A DNA stretch of 64,000 nucleotides from Bacilli bacterium (GCA_045118975.1 JBGVCT010000016.1:96569-160568); one strand, 5' to 3'. Positions 16,369-53,544 are shown, counted from the first letter of the stretch. Translations and numbers: made by a program. Notes: generated from the sequence alone by a model not told the origin.

Positions 16369-16471
16369 TATTTTCACCGATTAACATTATACATCAAAGA
16401 TGTATCTATAAAAATTATATTGGCACTTTTTTATCTCTATGATAAAATATGGGTGGTTAGGAGTAGGGAAG

Positions 16472-18301
16472 ATGAACGTAGTTTATAGAAGTATATCTTT
16501 CATAACAAGCCTTCTAATCCTTTTTTTGACTTTATTAATCGTATATAAAAGAGGTAAAAAAAGAGGTATTAAAAAGGCACTTTACAGGACTACATACATT
16601 TCTTTGTGTGTTGTTCTATCTTTTGTCATTGCTCCATATTTAACGGATTTTATTTTGAATTTGAATTTGTATCCACTAGGTTTGGGCCTTCATTATAATG
16701 GATTGAATTTTTATCGTATTATTGATTTTATTGAAGAGGTTATAGTGCATAATGATATTTTAAATGATATCTATAATGTTTTCCCTAACTTGAAAAGTCT
16801 ATTAATCGACTTCCCTCATGTTATATTTATTCCTTTTGTCTATGTATTTGCATTTTTCTCTATAACAATCATTTTATTGCCTTTGTATAAGTATCTTAGT
16901 TACAGGCGCAATAGAAGAACTCTATATGAGGTAGAAAAAAGAAACAAAGGTGGAGTTTGGGCGGGAATTATTTCAGTTGTTCAAATGATTTTTATTGTTT
17001 CTATTGTTCTAACACCGATTAATGGTTTAGTTAGAGTATATGCACAAAGTAAAAAAAACAATTTATCTGCAGATGAAAATGTTTGTGCTCAAAATGAACT
17101 TTTAGCAAAGTATGAAGCTGCGTGTTTAGCAATTGAGGGATATGATAGTAGTTTGTTTTCTATTATGAGTAAGAATCCATTGAATTCTTTTGTTTATGAT
17201 TCACTTACTAGAGTTGAATATGGAGAGATGCAAACTACTTTTTCTAGTGAATTAACTAATATCGCTAGAGTTGGTATTGTTTTAAATAAGACAGGAATAC
17301 TTGATGCTATGAATACGGAAATAAAAGATTTTTCTGATATTGCAAAACTTAACCTTAAGGGAATTAGTATTCAAGATATTGATATGATTATTGCAGCCTT
17401 TGAAGAATCTACATACAGTAGAGAGGTATTAGAGGATGTTTATGAGTTTGCAAGAGATTATCTTAATGTTTTATTACGGGATGAATTGCGTGTAGATGTT
17501 TATGTTGATTTATCTTATTCAGAGTTAATAGAAGAATTGAGAATTATTCTCCTTACAATCAATTTAATATTAGAAAATGAAGGATATATAGACAATATCT
17601 ATCGTATCTATAAAATTATAGAAGATTATGAAAATAGTAGTCAAAGTGATGAAGAGGGCATTAGAATGTTCTTTACAATTGCTCATACAGTTGATTTAGA
17701 GGCTTTAACTGCAATTTATGATCTTCTTAGTAAGTCTAGAATTTATAGAACTGTAATTCCTAGTTTACTCCAATATGCTTTATCTACGATTGATGTTTAC
17801 GTGACAATGACTGCAGATCCAGATGAATTAGATACTACAATTAGGTTGTTATTTGGATTAGTTGAGATTATTAAAAAACATCACACATATAACATTTTTA
17901 AACTGCTTGCTTATTTAAATTATGAAGAAGTTCAATATTTAGCTAAGGTTGTAAGCTATATGTGTAATAGTAAAACAATGAGAACATTCTTCTTTGATCT
18001 TGCTAATTATGGAATTAATAGTGCAGGGTTAAAGTTAGATATTCCAACTGAATTAATATTTGAAGTTAAAGATTGGACTAGGGAGTTATTGCTGGGTCAG
18101 ATTGTTATAAGAATTTTATATGAAGAGATGATGTATGGATATATAGACTACGATCTTGCATGGTATGGACTTACTCATTATAGTAATACAGTTGTCTTTG
18201 ATTATGCATGGAGAATGGGAATAAGTATGCTACCGGATGTATTTAAAATGTGGATAGCAGGAAAGGATTATAAATATTTGGTGGGTGAATATGTTGTATA
18301 A
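16472..18301 (+). CDS. Hypothetical multi-TM protein with large helical domain
   Basis: Four N-terminal TM segments plus ~430 aa helical region; ATG 16472 follows a purine-rich RBS. Confidence 0.75.
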   Translation: MNVVYRSISFITSLLILFLTLLIVYKRGKKRGIKKALYRTTYISLCVVLSFVIAPYLTDFILNLNLYPLGLGLHYNGLNFYRIIDFIEEVIVHNDILNDIYNVFPNLKSLLIDFPHVIFIPFVYVFAFFSITIILLPLYKYLSYRRNRRTLYEVEKRNKGGVWAGIISVVQMIFIVSIVLTPINGLVRVYAQSKKNNLSADENVCAQNELLAKYEAACLAIEGYDSSLFSIMSKNPLNSFVYDSLTRVEYGEMQTTFSSELTNIARVGIVLNKTGILDAMNTEIKDFSDIAKLNLKGISIQDIDMIIAAFEESTYSREVLEDVYEFARDYLNVLLRDELRVDVYVDLSYSELIEELRIILLTINLILENEGYIDNIYRIYKIIEDYENSSQSDEEGIRMFFTIAHTVDLEALTAIYDLLSKSRIYRTVIPSLLQYALSTIDVYVTMTADPDELDTTIRLLFGLVEIIKKHHTYNIFKLLAYLNYEEVQYLAKVVSYMCNSKTMRTFFFDLANYGINSAGLKLDIPTELIFEVKDWTRELLLGQIVIRILYEEMMYGYIDYDLAWYGLTHYSNTVVFDYAWRMGISMLPDVFKMWIAGKDYKYLVGEYVV

Positions 18302-19550
18302 GAAACTATTTAAAATATTTAGTATGTGTTTTATCCTTTTTGTCATATCTATTTTTGTTAATTCTTCAAGAGTTGAGGCATATGTTGGGTGTAATTATAA
18401 AATAGAAAATACTGAATTTTATGATTGTGGTAACTATGTTTATACATATCCTGCAGATTATAGTAAAAGTAGTATGATATATGCTATGCCAGGTAATAAT
18501 GTTGTATATGCAGGGGAAAGAGAGGGATATCATCTTTTCTATGTTAATGATTTTAGATATTACAATAGAACTTATGATGATAGATCTTTAAAAAATAATA
18601 ATATATGGACTAGTGTTTCTTCGATTTATGGAGTGGTTTTTTCAGGAGAGTTTAAAGATTCTATCTTATTGGATGAAACTCATGAGGGTGTATATAATGG
18701 AGGATATGCTATCGGTGGAGGTAAATATGAGGTTATTCAGTATCATCAAAATGGTGAAGAGTACTCTAAATTACTTATCTATAACATTAGTGATAGTATT
18801 TCTAATATTTATAACACCAATGTCAAATCATTTGATTATGATGGAACTATAATTGAACCAAATGTTAATACTGATGTTGTTGAACTTAATGATAAATTAA
18901 TTGTTAATTTAAATACTAGTTTTGGTATTAAAGACTTTTATTTGAAAGTTGATGGAGTTGAGGTTGAAAGTTATAGAATAATAAATAATTCTGCGATTTT
19001 TGATGCAGGGTTTAATAAATATTTGAATAAGGGAAATGTTAATACAATAGAGGTGTATGCTAAAAATTATTTAGGAACTGTTGTTAATGAAACATATTTT
19101 ATTAATGCTCTTAGCACAAATGTTTCTATTAATTTTTCAAGTATATCTAGTGATGTAATTAGTTCTAGTAGAAGAATAGTAATTAGTGCTAATGCGGGTA
19201 TTGGAGGAGAACTAGATAGAGACTATTGTTGGTATTATTGGTCTACTAATCCAAATGATTCTCTTGAGTATGAAGATTTTTTAGTTAACTATGCAAAAAG
19301 TGAATATAAGGGTAGTTATAGTGAAGACAAGGGTGTAATTCTTAGAAATACTTCAGGAACTTATTATTTATATGCATTAGCTAAAGATGAGGATTCTTAC
19401 ATAGTTTCTAGAAGTGAGGGTTATACTTTGGATGATAATGGATTTAGCTTTGAACTAACTATTAATGATTGGATTTTTATTGTTTCTTTATTGATTTTAG
19501 TAGTAGTTCCTATCTTAATATATTTATCTACAAGAAGAAGACTATATTAA
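18285..19550 (+). CDS. Exported protein with C-terminal membrane anchor
   Basis: Signal peptide ending VEA; beta-rich body; C-terminal TM followed by RRRLY. Confidence 0.75.
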   Translation: MNMLYKKLFKIFSMCFILFVISIFVNSSRVEAYVGCNYKIENTEFYDCGNYVYTYPADYSKSSMIYAMPGNNVVYAGEREGYHLFYVNDFRYYNRTYDDRSLKNNNIWTSVSSIYGVVFSGEFKDSILLDETHEGVYNGGYAIGGGKYEVIQYHQNGEEYSKLLIYNISDSISNIYNTNVKSFDYDGTIIEPNVNTDVVELNDKLIVNLNTSFGIKDFYLKVDGVEVESYRIINNSAIFDAGFNKYLNKGNVNTIEVYAKNYLGTVVNETYFINALSTNVSINFSSISSDVISSSRRIVISANAGIGGELDRDYCWYYWSTNPNDSLEYEDFLVNYAKSEYKGSYSEDKGVILRNTSGTYYLYALAKDEDSYIVSRSEGYTLDDNGFSFELTINDWIFIVSLLILVVVPILIYLSTRRRLY

Positions 19551-19576: not shown

Positions 19577-19653
19577 GCTCCTATAGCTCAACTGGATAGA
19601 GTACTTGGCTTCGAACCAGGGGGTTGTGAGTTCGATTCTTACTGGGAGCGCCA
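19577..19653 (+). tRNA. tRNA-Arg (anticodon UCG)
   Basis: Acceptor GCTCCTA/TGGGAGC, D-arm GCTC/GAGT, anticodon arm CTTGG-CTTCGAA-CCAGG, TTCGA T-loop, encoded CCA. Confidence 0.95.
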
Positions 19654-19783
19654 AATAAAATAAAAAGCTCATTTAGGGCTTTTTTTACTTTTTGCGTTTT
19701 ATTATCATAAGAAGGTTATCAAAATTAGAACTATTAAAAGATAAAAAATTTATTTTTTATTGGTGAAAATGTTATTAAAAATT

Positions 19784-19812
19784 TGACTATCAAAATAGAT
19801 AAATTTATAATC
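19784..19812 (+). promoter_or_regulatory. sigma-A promoter
   Basis: TTGACT-17 bp-TATAAT; places the true start at ATG 19834. Confidence 0.75.
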
Positions 19813-19833: not shown

Positions 19834-20460
19834 ATGAAAGACATGAGTAGACTTTATGAAAAAGAATTGCAAGAGAAGCAAAAGGAAGTTATTGCTTTAA
19901 TTAAGGGTCTTGCAAAAAAAGATGAGATGATGTTAAAGAATTTAGTTGCCCCAATTTATATGGTGGAAGGAAGTGCGTTTGTCGATCAAACTCAACAAGC
20001 CTCATGGAATGCACTGGTTAAAAAATATACTAAGGTTAACAAAAATTATGGTGGTTTAATTGATGAATCTTTACGTGTTATGAGAACTATTGAATTAAAG
20101 GGAATAGATCATGCGATTAGAGAGTTAGTTGATTTAGAGAGTGACGTTAGTAAGGTTGTAGCAGTAGTTAATAAGTATTCTAAGCATGGAAGTGAGTTTA
20201 CTTCTACACTAGTTAGAAATAACCCTAAGATTGTAGAAATATATCCTCCAATTGCTAGGGTTGCAAAAAAAGAACCAGTTAAGGTATCAAGTGATAGAGA
20301 TGAATATAATGATAAGGGATTAACTGAGTCAATTGAGTATATGTCAAATCTAATTGAAAACTTAAATGTTGATGAGAGAATTAAGGAAGCTATAGCACTT
20401 GAAAGAGATGAACTAAAAGGCATTCAAGAAAAAAGACTTGGTAAGTCTAAAACTAAATAA
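19834..20460 (+). CDS. Hypothetical protein, paralog of 51870..52520
   Basis: 38/132 ungapped identities to the 51870 ORF in a manual alignment. Confidence 0.8.
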   Translation: MKDMSRLYEKELQEKQKEVIALIKGLAKKDEMMLKNLVAPIYMVEGSAFVDQTQQASWNALVKKYTKVNKNYGGLIDESLRVMRTIELKGIDHAIRELVDLESDVSKVVAVVNKYSKHGSEFTSTLVRNNPKIVEIYPPIARVAKKEPVKVSSDRDEYNDKGLTESIEYMSNLIENLNVDERIKEAIALERDELKGIQEKRLGKSKTK

Positions 20461-20472
20461 GGAGAAATAAGA

Positions 20473-20700
20473 ATGAACTGTTTTGAAGAATTTAAGAAAA
20501 TTATTGCAAGCAAAGTAAAAGATGCTAGTGCAATTACAATGGAGTCTAATTTAAAAGATTTAGGATTAGATTCACTTGACTTACTTGAAATTGTAAGTGA
20601 GGGAGAAGAATTGCTAAATGTAGAATTCCAAGATGAAGAATTATTGTCTTTTAAGACAATTGGTGATGTAGTTAGTTGCGCTGAAGGGAAATTAAAGTAA
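20473..20700 (+). CDS. acpP: Acyl carrier protein
   Basis: 75 aa, acidic, DLGLDSLDLLEI phosphopantetheine site. Confidence 0.92.
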   Translation: MNCFEEFKKIIASKVKDASAITMESNLKDLGLDSLDLLEIVSEGEELLNVEFQDEELLSFKTIGDVVSCAEGKLK

Positions 20701-20701
20701 T

Positions 20702-21127
20702 ATGTTATACGATGAGATTAAAAAATTAAATCTTATCGCTATGAAAGAAAAGAATACAATTGCTAGAGCAATATATTCTGTTATTATTTCACGTGTTGAT
20801 TTGATTAAAGTTAACAAAAGAGAAAAGAATGAAGAATTAAATGAGGCAGATTGTGTTGGTGTTATTCAAAAGGTTATTAAAGAATTAGAAGATGAAAAAG
20901 AAAATTATTCTAAGGTTAATAATCTTGAAAGAGTGGAATCTACTCTAAAACAAATGGAGTACGCTAAAGCTTTACTTCCTAAAGGATTAAGTGAAGAAGA
21001 GATTGTAGAAATTGTAAATTCTTTAGAAGATAAATCAATGCCTAATATTATGAAATATTTCAAAACTAACTATGCAGGCAAATGTGATATGTCTATAGTT
21101 AGTAAAATTGCAAAATCTTATAATTAA
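20702..21127 (+). CDS. GatB/YqeY domain protein
   Basis: AMKEKN..ARAI, LLPKGLSEEEI, MPNIMK...YAGKCDM..VS pattern. Confidence 0.82.
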   Translation: MLYDEIKKLNLIAMKEKNTIARAIYSVIISRVDLIKVNKREKNEELNEADCVGVIQKVIKELEDEKENYSKVNNLERVESTLKQMEYAKALLPKGLSEEEIVEIVNSLEDKSMPNIMKYFKTNYAGKCDMSIVSKIAKSYN

Positions 21128-21175: not shown

Positions 21176-21249
21176 AGGGGTATAGTTCAAAGGTAGAATA
21201 ACGGTCTCCAAAACCGCTGATGTGGGTTCGATTCCTACTACCCCTGCCA
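21176..21249 (+). tRNA. tRNA-Trp (anticodon CCA)
   Basis: Acceptor AGGGGTA/TACCCCT, anticodon loop CTCCAAA, TTCGA T-loop, encoded CCA, downstream terminator. Confidence 0.95.
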
Positions 21250-21385
21250 TTTATGAGAAAATAAGCCCATCAGGGCTTTTTTTATTTATTAATACTTAAA
21301 ACATTATTAAATAGTGTAGTTGGTGATATACTGGAGTTAGTGATTTATATTTTATAAATCAAATATTTTGTTTATAGCATAAGAT

Positions 21386-49603: not shown

Positions 49604-51425
49604 AGGAAATAATAATTTTACAAAAAGAACTTCTAATATTGTTAAACAAACAAATAAACCCGTGGTAGATAAAGAGAATCACGTGATTATTTTTAGGGGA
49701 AGTAAGAGTATTTCTGATCTTGCTAAGGAATTATCAGTTAGCCCAACTGAAGTTATAAAGTTTTTATTTTTAGAAGGTAAGATGGTTAATATAAACTCTG
49801 TTTTAGATGCACCTATGGCAGAGCTTGTGTGTATGAACTTTGGATATGATATGAAAATTGAAAAAGTTGTTAGTGAAGAAAACTTTGAAGAGTTAGAAAT
49901 AGTAGATGAAGAAAAAGATTTAGTTTCTAGACCTCCAATAGTTACTATTATGGGACACGTTGACCATGGTAAGACTACACTTCTTGATGCTATTAGAAAA
50001 AGTAGAGTAGTAGAGGGAGAAGTTGGTGGTATTACTCAAAGTATTGGTGCTTATCAAGTTGAAGTACAAGGAAAGAAAATTACTTTCCTAGATACTCCAG
50101 GACATGAAGCTTTTGCTGCTATGAGAGCTAGAGGAGCACAAGTTACTGATATTGTTATATTAGTTGTTGCTGCAGATGATGGTGTTATGCCTCAAACTAG
50201 AGAAGCTATTGACCATGCTAAAGCTGCAGGAGTTCCAATTGTGGTTGCAGTCAATAAAATGGATAAGCCTGATATTAATCTTGATAGATTATATGCTGAA
50301 TTAAGTGATTGTGAAATTATTAGTGAAGAATGGGGAGGAGAAAATATCTTCTGTAAAGTTAGTGCTAAGATTGGACAAGGTATTGATGAACTTCTTGAAT
50401 CACTATTAATTATTGCAGAACTTGAAGATTATAAGGCTAATCCTAATAGATATGCTCTAGGTACTATTATCGAGTCTAAACTTGAAAAGGGTAGAGGAGT
50501 AGTTGCTACTTTACTTGTAGAAAATGGTACTTTAAGACATGGGGATTGCGTTGTTGCTGGTACTATGTATGGTAAGATTAGACAGATGAGAAGCGATATG
50601 GGTAAGGTTGTAAAAGAGGCTACACCTAGTACACCAGTTGAAATTATTGGTTTAAGTGATGTACCTAGTGCTGGAGACAAGTTTATGGCTTTTGAAGATG
50701 AGAAAAAGGCAAGAGATATAGCAAATAAGAGATTAACTGAAAAGACATTAAATGATAGAAGAGGAAATACTAGTGTATCTTTAGATGATTTATATAATCA
50801 AATAAAGATGGGTGATGTACAAACTCTTAATATCATTATTAAAGCAGATAGTGATGGTAGTGCAGAGGCAGTTAAGGCTTCACTTATGAAGTTAAATAAT
50901 GATGAAGTTAAAATTAATGTTATAAGAGCACAAGCTGGTGCTATTACTGAAAGTGATGTATTACTTGCTAGTGCATCTAAAGCTATTGTGTATGGTTTTA
51001 ATGTTAGACCTGATGCAACAGTTAGACAAAAGGCTGAAGAAGAAAAAGTAGAACTTAGATTACATAGAATTATCTATGCTTTAGTTGAAGAAATTGAAGC
51101 TGCGATGAAGGGTATGTTAAAACCTGTATATAAAGAAGTTGTTATTGGAAATGCTGAAGTTAGACAAACTTATAAAGCTAGTAAAGTTGGAACTATTGCT
51201 GGTTGTTATGTAACTAATGGTTCTATTAAAAGAGATTGTGGTATTAGATTACTTAGAAATAGTGTTATCGTATATGAAGGTAAACTAGGATCATTAAAGA
51301 GATTCCAAAATGATGCAAAAGAAGTATCTACTGGATATGAATGTGGTATCACTATTGAAAACTTCAATGATATCAAAGAAGGAGATACAATTGAAGGATT
51401 TGTAATGGAAGAGGTAAAAAGATAA
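49587..51425 (+). CDS. infB: Translation initiation factor IF-2 (short form)
   Basis: [33 protein letters not shown]. Confidence 0.97.
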
Positions 51426-51778
51426 TGGCTAAGATTAAACAAGAAAAATTAGCAGTTGATATTCAAAGATATATAAGCGAGATAATTCAATTTGAATTAG
51501 GACATATCAATGTTGGTATGGTTACTGTTACTAAAGTTAAGGTTAGTGATGATAATTCATGGGCTAAAGTATATGTTAGTTTCTTAGATAAAAATAGAGA
51601 AAAGAAGCTAGAAGACTTAAAAAATGCTAAATGGCTTATAAGAAGTGAATTAGCTAAAAGATTAACTATTAGAAAAACTCCTGATTTAAACTTTGTTTTA
51701 GATGATAGTTATCAAAAAGGCGAACATATCGAAGAAATCATAAGAGAAATTAAAAAGAAAGAAAGTTCAAAGGAATAA
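51425..51778 (+). CDS. rbfA: Ribosome-binding factor A
   Basis: AKVYVS, LTIRKTPDL.F..D.S. Confidence 0.93.
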   Translation: MAKIKQEKLAVDIQRYISEIIQFELGHINVGMVTVTKVKVSDDNSWAKVYVSFLDKNREKKLEDLKNAKWLIRSELAKRLTIRKTPDLNFVLDDSYQKGEHIEEIIREIKKKESSKE

Positions 51779-51817
51779 CTTTGAACTTTTTTTTATGTTA
51801 ATAACCTAATACAAAAT

Positions 51818-51846
51818 TTGACTTAGAGTAATTTAAATTATAAAAT
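51818..51846 (+). promoter_or_regulatory. sigma-A promoter
   Basis: TTGACT-17 bp-TAAAAT. Confidence 0.65.
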
Positions 51847-51869: not shown

Positions 51870-52520
51870 ATGTCATGGATGTATAGTGATGAAGAGTACT
51901 ATAAGCAATTAAAATATCAAGAAAGAGAAATTAAAAAGAGTATTAAGTATTGGGAAAAGGTTGAAAGAAATTTATTGAAAAAACTTTGGTCTCCTGTTTG
52001 GGAAAAACAAGGGCAAGCATTTATTGAGCCAAAAAAACACACTGCATGGAGAAGAGCTATAAAATGGGATTCTCTTACTAGAAATCTTTATGGTACTTAT
52101 ATTCAAGATACTTTAAATGTTATGAGAGCAATTGAACTTGGCGGTAATGAAGCAGGAATTAAAGCTATGTCTAATGTTGATTTTGGAAGCAATAGAGTAT
52201 TAGAATTAGTAGAAAAATTTCATCGTCAAGGGAAGAGCTTTGCTAATGCATATGTAGATAGTAGACCAGACTTAGTAGATAAGTATCCTGAGCTTAAAAA
52301 GTATGTTGGTGGTATAGATAATCCACTTACTGTAGAAGAAATTAATAGAGGTAATGAGGCTTTAAAAGAAGCTATAGCATATACAATAGAAGCAACAGAG
52401 CATATACATTTACATGAGGCTGATAGAAGTATAGCAAATACTGCAATTAAAGAGATGCAAGCAATTGCTCAAGCAAGAGGTTTAGAATTCGCGACTTCAA
52501 AAAGACCACAAATGAAGTGA
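51870..52520 (+). CDS. Hypothetical protein, paralog of 19834..20460
   Basis: Shared G.AF(I/V)...W, YG..I...L.VMR.IEL.G and P..V..YP motifs. Confidence 0.8.
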   Translation: MSWMYSDEEYYKQLKYQEREIKKSIKYWEKVERNLLKKLWSPVWEKQGQAFIEPKKHTAWRRAIKWDSLTRNLYGTYIQDTLNVMRAIELGGNEAGIKAMSNVDFGSNRVLELVEKFHRQGKSFANAYVDSRPDLVDKYPELKKYVGGIDNPLTVEEINRGNEALKEAIAYTIEATEHIHLHEADRSIANTAIKEMQAIAQARGLEFATSKRPQMK

Positions 52521-52620
52521 TTAATTTTTAATCACTTTTTTATTTTGTTTCTATACCAAATAATCATTGAAAAGAAGTTATTGCTAGTTTATAATTTAAA
52601 TAGGTATAGGGGTGGTAAAG

Positions 52621-53544
52621 ATGAGGGATATATTGAACCAAATAGCTTTGTCACCATTTAGTGAAAAACAAATAGAAGAACTTCAATTAACAGGGACAAT
52701 TTATACTAAATTAAATAATATGGGAAATAAAAAGAGGAATAAATCCATCATTGGAGATGTTTTTGATTTGATTATAGAACATTTTTATATTGGAGATCTA
52801 AAGCTTAAATTTGGAGAAAATTTAGGATTTAATGATGATGCTGTTTACATTGAAAATTTAAATGGCAGTTATGAAGAAACTTTTATAGATATATTAAAGA
52901 AGGTTATTATTGCCTATTTTAAAAGAATTGATGATGTGTATATGTCAATCGAAGAGAGTGTATATAAACTTATTAAACTTAGTATTTTAAATAATGATGA
53001 AGAAATGCTAGATAAATTAGTTAATAACGTAGCATATGAGTTAATTGATGATATGGGATTAAATATAGAAGTTAATCATTCTAGAATTCTGAAGAAAGAC
53101 ATAGCTAATCTTATAGTTATTAATAATCAAAGAAATAAGAAATTAATTGAAACATGTTGTTATTATTTAGATGAGGATTTAACTTCATATCAAATAAGAA
53201 ATGTATTTTCTTGTTTCTCTAGTGATGTATTTAATAAGGCTAATGTTAAGCAAAAGGCTTATTTGATGAATTTGGTTTATAATTATTTTAATTTTTCTAG
53301 TGAAAATAGAGTGAATAAATACAAGAAGGTTATTACAAATGAATTTGATAATGTCGATGCATTAGAGTATATTGTGAATGATCTATCATTAAAGGATAAT
53401 ACTAATAATATAAATGCTATTAGAAATCTAAAATTACTTGAAGATTTCAAGAGTGGGTTTAAATATATTATTAAAAATGAGACTAATAAAGCAGCAGTAT
53501 CTAGGCTTGATGAAGTTTCAATAAAAAATATTAATAAGAAATAA
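52621..53544 (+). CDS. Hypothetical protein
   Basis: ~307 aa; own promoter TTGAAA-17 bp-TATAAT (52567-52595) and terminator. Confidence 0.72.
   Translation: MRDILNQIALSPFSEKQIEELQLTGTIYTKLNNMGNKKRNKSIIGDVFDLIIEHFYIGDLKLKFGENLGFNDDAVYIENLNGSYEETFIDILKKVIIAYFKRIDDVYMSIEESVYKLIKLSILNNDEEMLDKLVNNVAYELIDDMGLNIEVNHSRILKKDIANLIVINNQRNKKLIETCCYYLDEDLTSYQIRNVFSCFSSDVFNKANVKQKAYLMNLVYNYFNFSSENRVNKYKKVITNEFDNVDALEYIVNDLSLKDNTNNINAIRNLKLLEDFKSGFKYIIKNETNKAAVSRLDEVSIKNINKK

Follow-up and report, generated by a model that had tools for sequence, protein, structure and literature searches.

A stretch of 64,000 nucleotides from the 1.07-Mb genome of a Bacilli bacterium (GCA_045118975.1 JBGVCT010000016.1:96569-160568; 'the window' in what follows, with positions counted from its first letter) harbours two related genes, here copy A and copy B, which an initial annotation, made from the sequence alone, had singled out as a dispersed, lineage-specific paralogous family of unknown function. 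Copy A (protein P0001, 208 amino acids) extends from 19834 to 20460 and copy B (P0002, 216 amino acids), its paralog by BLASTP, from 51870 to 52520; both open reading frames are present where they had been placed, on the plus strand, as are all other features located in the window below. The neighbours previously assigned to them are there as well: the first gene follows a tRNA gene, tRNA-Arg(TCG) (19577-19653, ARAGORN), and the second follows rbfA (51425-51778). The ATG codon of copy A is preceded, 6-16 nt upstream, by the ribosome-binding site AAGGATGGTGA, and that of copy B by AGGGAG. Longer frames beginning with TTG were ruled out as the true starts of both genes, because the TTG of copy A begins where its own -35 box begins, and because good ribosome-binding sites stand before both ATG codons. 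The pair of promoters that had been noted, each preceded by AAAAT, also exists: TTGACT-17-TATAAT at 19783-19811 for copy A, with 11 of the 12 consensus positions, and TTGACT-17-TAAAAT at 51818-51846 for copy B, both being of the sigma-70 type.

In a genome of low G+C content, helical proteins rich in lysine and glutamate may look alike for reasons of composition only, and an identity of just 24% is what would lead one to suspect that the two frames are unrelated. The figures make the likelihood of this explanation vanishingly small. The 38 identities over 132 ungapped residues previously counted by hand were reproduced exactly, the best such stretch beginning at residue 7 of copy A. Over the whole length, 48 of 208 residues are identical without a single gap, and BLASTP with composition adjustment aligns 194 residues, ungapped, at 24% identity (E 1e-23). 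The Smith-Waterman score of 214 is to be compared with 34.5 +/- 5.6, and a maximum of 63, for 2000 composition-matched shuffles (z = 32); shuffles that preserve local composition, a test that might have disposed of the paralogy, left it standing (z = 25). Orthologs of both copies exist, besides, in other assemblies, at 68-73% identity for copy A and 44-87% for copy B, none of them named and none with a Pfam domain. Copies A and B are thus real, intact and independently promoted paralogs, with a similarity far above chance, and the genome contains exactly these two.

They also evolve far faster than any other gene of their neighbourhoods, which are otherwise conserved and made of housekeeping genes. 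When the window is compared with the corresponding locus of a congener, G001 (L018), the products of infB and rbfA are 98.9% and 96.6% identical, and that of copy B 51.9%; at a second locus (L019), the values are 98.4%, 96.6% and 43.5%. At L013, which carries a divergent allele, the 76 C-terminal amino acids of RbfA are 88% identical (synonymous divergence, dS, 0.63), and copy B has come down to 31.8% (non-synonymous divergence, dN, 0.69). The same is seen at the other locus, with 90.7% identity for the acyl carrier protein (ACP) against 31.1% for copy A (L014), and 68% for the C-terminus of the surface protein encoded upstream (S421) against 37.9% (L011). With a dN of 0.39-0.49 for copy B and of 0.01 for infB, the two genes change at roughly 40 times the rate of the housekeeping genes beside them. 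The change is sharply delimited: sliding-window nucleotide identity falls to a local minimum of 53-65% in copy B, within surroundings at 90-95%, and identity still stands at 93% over the 100 nt that precede its start codon. A maximum-likelihood tree separates a monophyletic A clade (100/99), made of two subclades, from two B groups, and an outgroup of the distant type described below joins near B. There are, therefore, discrete and deeply divergent allele classes (A1/A2 and B1/B2) at fixed slots in closely related organisms.

Does this mean that we are simply witnessing the decay of young, weakly constrained, lineage-specific genes, drifting near-neutrally towards loss? Several facts would fit with this idea. 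In divergent pairs the dN of A or B (0.65-0.74) is about the dS of flanking genes (0.63-1.07, near saturation), both genes are absent from another congener, G002, and truncated or frameshifted versions are present in some metagenome assemblies (P0029, P0037, P0052). Yet more than 20 sequence clusters have undamaged frames, and all full-length clusters, although identity goes down to 25-30%, have kept a length of about 205-225 amino acids, a common set of motifs and a fold that is predicted with confidence. The coding sequence is much less conserved than the promoters and ribosome-binding sites, and the central domain of the proteins persists across distant Bacillota and mobile elements. Within allele class A1, where omega is 0.14-0.15 (a rough value, with dS near saturation), selection is purifying. 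We therefore consider drift towards loss unlikely. With dS near saturation, the pattern may stem from diversifying selection, from replacement of alleles by recombination or from episodic relaxation.

The distribution of the genes is no less telling. Among 61 relatives and 401 genomes (70 genera) of the order, full-length A and B were found in the window genome and in G001, a metagenome-assembled genome from sheep rectum, only; this bears out the lineage-specific character proposed at the outset, with 2 of the 401 genomes and one of the 70 genera. Proteins with the full-length architecture are restricted to a handful of species in a single genus of uncultured Bacilli, which have small genomes and come from ruminant guts. 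Wherever contigs have enough flanking sequence, the order of genes is strict: genes of 620 and 421 codons, A, acpP and yqeY at one locus (A-ACP-YqeY being conserved in L006-L010 and L014-L016), and nusA, ylxR, an L7Ae gene, infB, rbfA, B, a gene for a 310-amino-acid protein and an M20 gene at the other. In G002, the third species of the genus, both sites are empty: the gene for the 421-amino-acid surface protein is followed, after 43 nt, by acpP-yqeY, and rbfA, after 85 nt, by a homolog of the 310-amino-acid gene found downstream of B. Since G002 is devoid of both genes, with the flanking genes abutting, both A and B are dispensable. In the three species sampled they have been gained or lost together, and they may act together.

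This conserved order invites yet another interpretation, namely that the two proteins are housekeeping accessory factors, A as a partner or regulator of ACP and YqeY in lipid metabolism, and B as an accessory of the nusA-infB-rbfA operon of translation and ribosome maturation. Besides strict synteny, the idea has in its favour a gap of 12 nt between A and acpP in the window, and an overlap between the stop codon of A and the start of acpP in L008, both of which suggest co-transcription. Copy A is indeed probably co-transcribed in the window with acpP (20473-20700, PP-binding), yqeY (20702-21127, encoding a GatB/YqeY-domain protein, third gene of the unit) and tRNA-Trp(CCA), considering the short gap and the fact that the first terminator is the hairpin at 21263-21278, which closes the unit (tRNA-Trp and hairpin, 21176-21278). 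A hairpin resembling an intrinsic terminator, located after tRNA-Arg (19662-19684), separates A from upstream transcription. By contrast, B has a promoter of its own beyond the rbfA terminator: a hairpin with a T-run overlaps the end of rbfA (51762-51789; assigned to the minus strand by the scan, although the sequence reads as a plus-strand element), likely the terminator of infB-rbfA, and it is 100% conserved in L018, L019 and L021. Furthermore, a binding protein with 31-52% identity is not what one would expect for partners conserved at 91-99%. G002, as just seen, keeps acpP-yqeY and infB-rbfA without A or B, and in sister genera the A slot is occupied by a CofD/YvcK gene or by nothing, with genes unrelated to B after rbfA. 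The linkage to acpP and rbfA is thus positional rather than obligatory, because a congener and sister genera retain the flanking genes while having neither A nor B; on this account a functional tie with ACP/YqeY or with IF2/RbfA was rejected, and the housekeeping interpretation as a whole seems improbable.

Expression signals have been retained at these loci. The promoter of A is kept, as TTGACA-17-TATAAT, at the orthologous loci L006, L008 and L017, and that of B at L018, L019 and L021; even at L013, with its divergent B2 allele, TTGACT-17-TAAAAT still stands in front of the gene. Ribosome-binding sites are conserved likewise at the orthologous loci of relatives. The resemblance between the two promoters had suggested that the pair might be co-regulated. 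The pattern TTGACT-N17-TAWAAT occurs in the window at these two sites only, where 0.09 would be expected, and three times in the genome, the third site (G000:C3:45695-45723, minus strand) being outside the window, but the pattern was taken from the pair itself, so that the counts are post hoc. The two promoters have in common only near-consensus sigma-70 hexamers set 17 nt apart and, upstream, a stretch rich in A; nothing resembling a shared operator was seen in them. The sixth base of the -35 box is T in the window pair and A in most orthologous loci, and the spacers of the two promoters differ. Co-regulation is accordingly not borne out, and both genes appear to be served by strong, independent promoters, with no sign of a shared regulator.

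A few words must be added about the neighbours. Upstream of A lie two overlapping genes (16439-18301, 620 amino acids, and 18285-19550, 421 amino acids), with no Pfam or NCBIfam match. The shorter protein begins with a signal-like segment and ends with a membrane anchor. In all relatives the pair is conserved ahead of the A slot, and it is itself fast-evolving (55-62% identity, omega 0.28-0.42). The slot is a hotspot of gene turnover: a sister genus has a CofD/YvcK gene there (PF01933, E 1e-72), between the surface-protein gene and acpP (L027:1767-2684 and L030:516-1454), and two relatives (L006 and L008) have an HD-domain gene where the window has tRNA-Arg. Downstream of B, the gene for the 310-amino-acid protein (52612-53544), also without a Pfam or NCBIfam match, has its own promoter, TTGAAA-17-TATAAT (52567-52595), and evolves fast (59-62% identity where infB is at 98-99%); in contrast to B, it is present in G002.

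What do these proteins look like? The AlphaFold2 model of copy A is all-alpha (pLDDT 86.6, pTM 0.79), with an N-terminal helix of 45 residues, then a compact core, also helical, and a helical hairpin at the C-terminus. Both copies are soluble, all-helical proteins of about 210 amino acids with this same build. Modelled alone from a deeper alignment, the core is predicted to be a six-helix bundle of about 90 amino acids (pLDDT 92.7, pTM 0.85). The family is mildly basic (pI 7.8-9.2), and no signal peptide or membrane segment was found in its proteins. It had been envisaged that the pair might map to some characterised domain, and this was not the case in any of Pfam, NCBIfam, PHROGs, PADLOC, PDB or BFVD. 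The best Pfam-A scores of the two copies were 17.5 and 17.0 bits (cut-off 27), the isolated core domains remaining below cut-off too, and the best NCBIfam score was 15.4 bits (cut-off 500). Neither protein matched the PHROGs and PADLOC profiles at E ≤ 0.01, and P0001 gave no tblastn match in 50,697 phage records. Sequence-profile searches of the PDB with two family alignments reached E 0.31 and 0.097 at best. As for structure, the full-length model found no Foldseek neighbour at the threshold of E ≤ 1e-3 (best E 0.18 in PDB and 0.26 in BFVD), nor did the core model in PDB (best E 5.3). By the evidence at hand A and B represent an undescribed protein family and an undescribed domain, since no described family or fold matches.

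Are they ORFans, as initially proposed? The answer is twofold. The full-length architecture is indeed restricted to the lineage, but the central 90 residues or so are homologous to an unannotated domain of other Bacillota. A search of 1.84 billion representative proteins with a hidden Markov model built from the family yielded 40 matches at E ≤ 1e-3 (16 of them at E ≤ 1e-10). It brought in eight further full-length clusters of about 205-225 amino acids, and weaker matches, which all align at profile positions ~40-130 and share P-x-W-I-x-x-G-x-x-x-I-x-P-x5-W ... Y-G ... A-L-x-I-M-x-x-L-E-x-G ... F-S-K-R-G-P-E-F; in the consensus of the superfamily the last element reads F-S-K-x-G-x-E-F, the rest being the same. 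A profile of the window family only (A5) and a profile of the core of the other proteins (A6) were matched by hhalign over 90 columns with a probability of 99.3% (E 4.9e-20). Conversely A6, with not a single row from the window family, recovered both copies from their own genome: the core of copy A at residues 38-128 (19945-20217, E 2.7e-13), and that of copy B, residues ~40-130 (51987-52259), through a match at 51993-52253 (E 1.3e-14). Besides this profile homology, A and B display the landmarks of the WIxxG...FSKRGPEF type: a glycine after helix 1, a tryptophan in helix 2, the ALxIM helix and F-S-x-x-G-x-x-F. By profile comparison, then, the core belongs to an undescribed predicted domain superfamily, sparsely scattered in the Bacillota: of 399 genomes taken from across the phylum, 3 contain it. 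One of the weak matches, in G033, is limited to 62 residues of a 417-amino-acid frame (E 0.002). Another candidate, P0039 (670 amino acids, with ten exact repeats of 60 residues), was discarded as spurious or a probable assembly artefact, for it aligned at profile positions 115-149 only. Seeding a homolog search with words from the core alignment brought hardly anything new, and in the distant relatives, scanned with the sequence libraries, the domain went unrecognised too.

The places where this domain dwells are of some consequence for what follows. It is found on large plasmids of Lysinibacillus sphaericus, Clostridium perfringens, Paenibacillus polymyxa and C. botulinum. The copy of the L. 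sphaericus plasmid pBsph (WP_012291698.1; hhalign probability of 98.2% against the core profile) lies downstream of a gene for a cell-wall hydrolase, with small hypothetical genes around it. Two gut phage records, MT835469 and MT835742, also encode it. In the former (MT835469.1, L052:1300-2400) a gene for a 366-amino-acid adenylosuccinate-synthetase-like protein is located ~1.5 kb upstream of the domain homolog, among small frames without assigned function; in phages, such an enzyme (PurZ) marks genomes containing 2-aminoadenine. Finally, an element resembling an integrative and conjugative element (ICE; L022) carries a two-unit homolog, P0058, adjoining genes for Tad4, a sortase and two serine recombinases. 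The Tad4 gene (PF25186, 112 bits; anti-Thoeris) lies at L022:6997-7833, directly upstream of P0058; the element also comprises a SpaA-type surface protein and regulators with sigma-70 region 4 and HTH_16 domains, and may be an anti-defence islet. The other homes of the domain are solitary, unremarkable chromosomal sites.

Distant members (WP_012291698.1, the MT835469 and MT835742 frames, P0036, P0058 and P0054) share with A and B the homologous six-helix core and the long helix which precedes it. They differ in being mostly acidic (pI ~4.7-5.3), in having an HSGxS loop which the A/B family is without, and in missing its C-terminal helical hairpin. Their core is usually paired with a small domain of about 65 amino acids, often in tandem, up to five units. 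This second domain, which alternates with the core in P0058, P0036, P0049, P0054 and others (for example at L022:8001-9476), is also unannotated: its consensus is G-E-S-V-x-x-E-F-N-G-H-x-L-Y-S-x-D-V-T-M-D-x-A-Y-x-E-V-x-G-x-T-K-x-E-F, and in Pfam it elicits sub-threshold hits to InlK_D2 and PAS_3 only.

Weak Pfam scores in distant repeat proteins raised the idea that A and B might be chromosomal versions of Tad3, inhibitors of Thoeris (TIR/ThsB) immunity, or of some other described anti-defence family. Tad3 is a helical protein that binds ThsB (PMC13728456). The family (PF25185), through which phages inhibit type I Thoeris, consists of small helical proteins borne by mobile elements, which are not enzymes, as is likely for A and B too. 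Some distant relatives do score weakly with its profile (68.7 bits summed over five repeats for P0036, 31 bits for P0058), as do 4 of 33 isolated core domains at E<1, and P0058 adjoins a bona fide Tad4 gene. Nevertheless, P0001 and P0002 have no PF25185 match even at E ≤ 1 (cut-off 27 bits), and a six-frame search of their own genome finds none at E ≤ 10. Against a genuine Tad3, that of G680 (79 bits), hhalign gives a probability of 3.5% to the core profile and of 0.2% to the window family. The likeness is limited to a short stretch of Tad3 containing HSGxS, which resembles the distant relatives and not the A/B family, and no PADLOC, PHROG, PDB sequence or PDB fold match comes to its support (Foldseek found no neighbour for either model among PDB entries to April 2026, with the Tad3 structure not confirmed among them). 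Identity with Tad3 was therefore rejected, and we regard membership of any of these described inhibitor families as very improbable.

Taken together, the rate of change of A and B, their distribution and their relatives suggest that they are soluble proteins which bind a partner rather than catalyse a reaction, and which probably form oligomers by way of their long terminal helices, the partner evolving fast or varying between strains, most plausibly at the interface between host and mobile elements. We would give this reading a probability of about 0.45. Superfamily-wide conservation concerns only glycine, proline, tryptophan and hydrophobic core positions, together with the short F-S-K/R-x-G-x-E-F turn, and no candidate set of catalytic residues was seen in the superfamily alignment; because only structural positions are conserved, without a catalytic constellation, a binding module is favoured over an enzyme. 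The two proteins would act as such modules, probably oligomerising through their terminal helices, and would recognise a partner that changes rapidly or differs between strains. This partner would most plausibly be a component of the conflict between hosts and mobile elements, a setting judged the most plausible because the distant relatives live on plasmids, in phages and in an ICE-like element; fast change and dispensability, too, hint at a role in some conflict. The association with acpP and rbfA would then be a matter of position, not of function.

Several points weigh against this binding-protein interpretation. No defence or mobile-element gene flanks A or B in the window. Fast evolution could reflect weak constraint rather than conflict, and no more than three genomes show A and B to be present or absent together. 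Several distant relatives reside in ordinary chromosomal contexts, and the difference in charge, with A and B basic (pI 7.8-9.2) and most distant relatives acidic (pI 4.7-5.3), implies that function may have diverged.

One may go further, in a distinctly speculative vein which we hold to be rather unlikely, and imagine that the core is a new fold family used by plasmids, phages and ICEs of the Bacillota for host-targeting (anti-defence or takeover), which a single genus would have captured, duplicated and placed under strong constitutive promoters at two housekeeping loci, A and B forming a hypervariable, strain-specific decoy, immunity or specificity pair directed against mobile elements. Such an arrangement, if true, would amount to an allelic system spread over two loci, a type so far undescribed. 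By analogy only, A and B may be likened in their behaviour to the fast-evolving immunity, antitoxin and anti-defence proteins, such as those providing immunity to polymorphic toxins or acting in anti-restriction. Those proteins are small, non-enzymatic and often helical, and display presence/absence polymorphism, deeply divergent alleles at fixed loci, and plasmid and phage relatives. Unlike them, A and B are adjoined in the window by no cognate toxin gene, nor by any of defence or of a mobile element, and no sequence or fold relation to described immunity or anti-defence families was found in Pfam, NCBIfam, PHROGs, PADLOC or PDB.

With reference to the exploration of such genomes, a first lesson is one of caution when function is inferred from conserved gene order: the adjacency to acpP and rbfA is strictly syntenic, and yet dispensable. 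The value of the present pair is that of a well-delimited and testable target, not of a solved mechanism. Deep allele classes lodged between genes conserved at 91-99%, behind strong conserved promoters, and missing from a congener, form a pattern that marks loci of specificity or conflict. If the binding-protein reading holds, a domain with a confidently predicted fold, found on plasmids, in phages and beside a known anti-defence gene, would be a candidate for a new module in the biology of mobile elements, and the pattern displayed by A and B would give us a handle on the interplay between phages and their hosts in uncultured, genome-reduced gut Bacilli.
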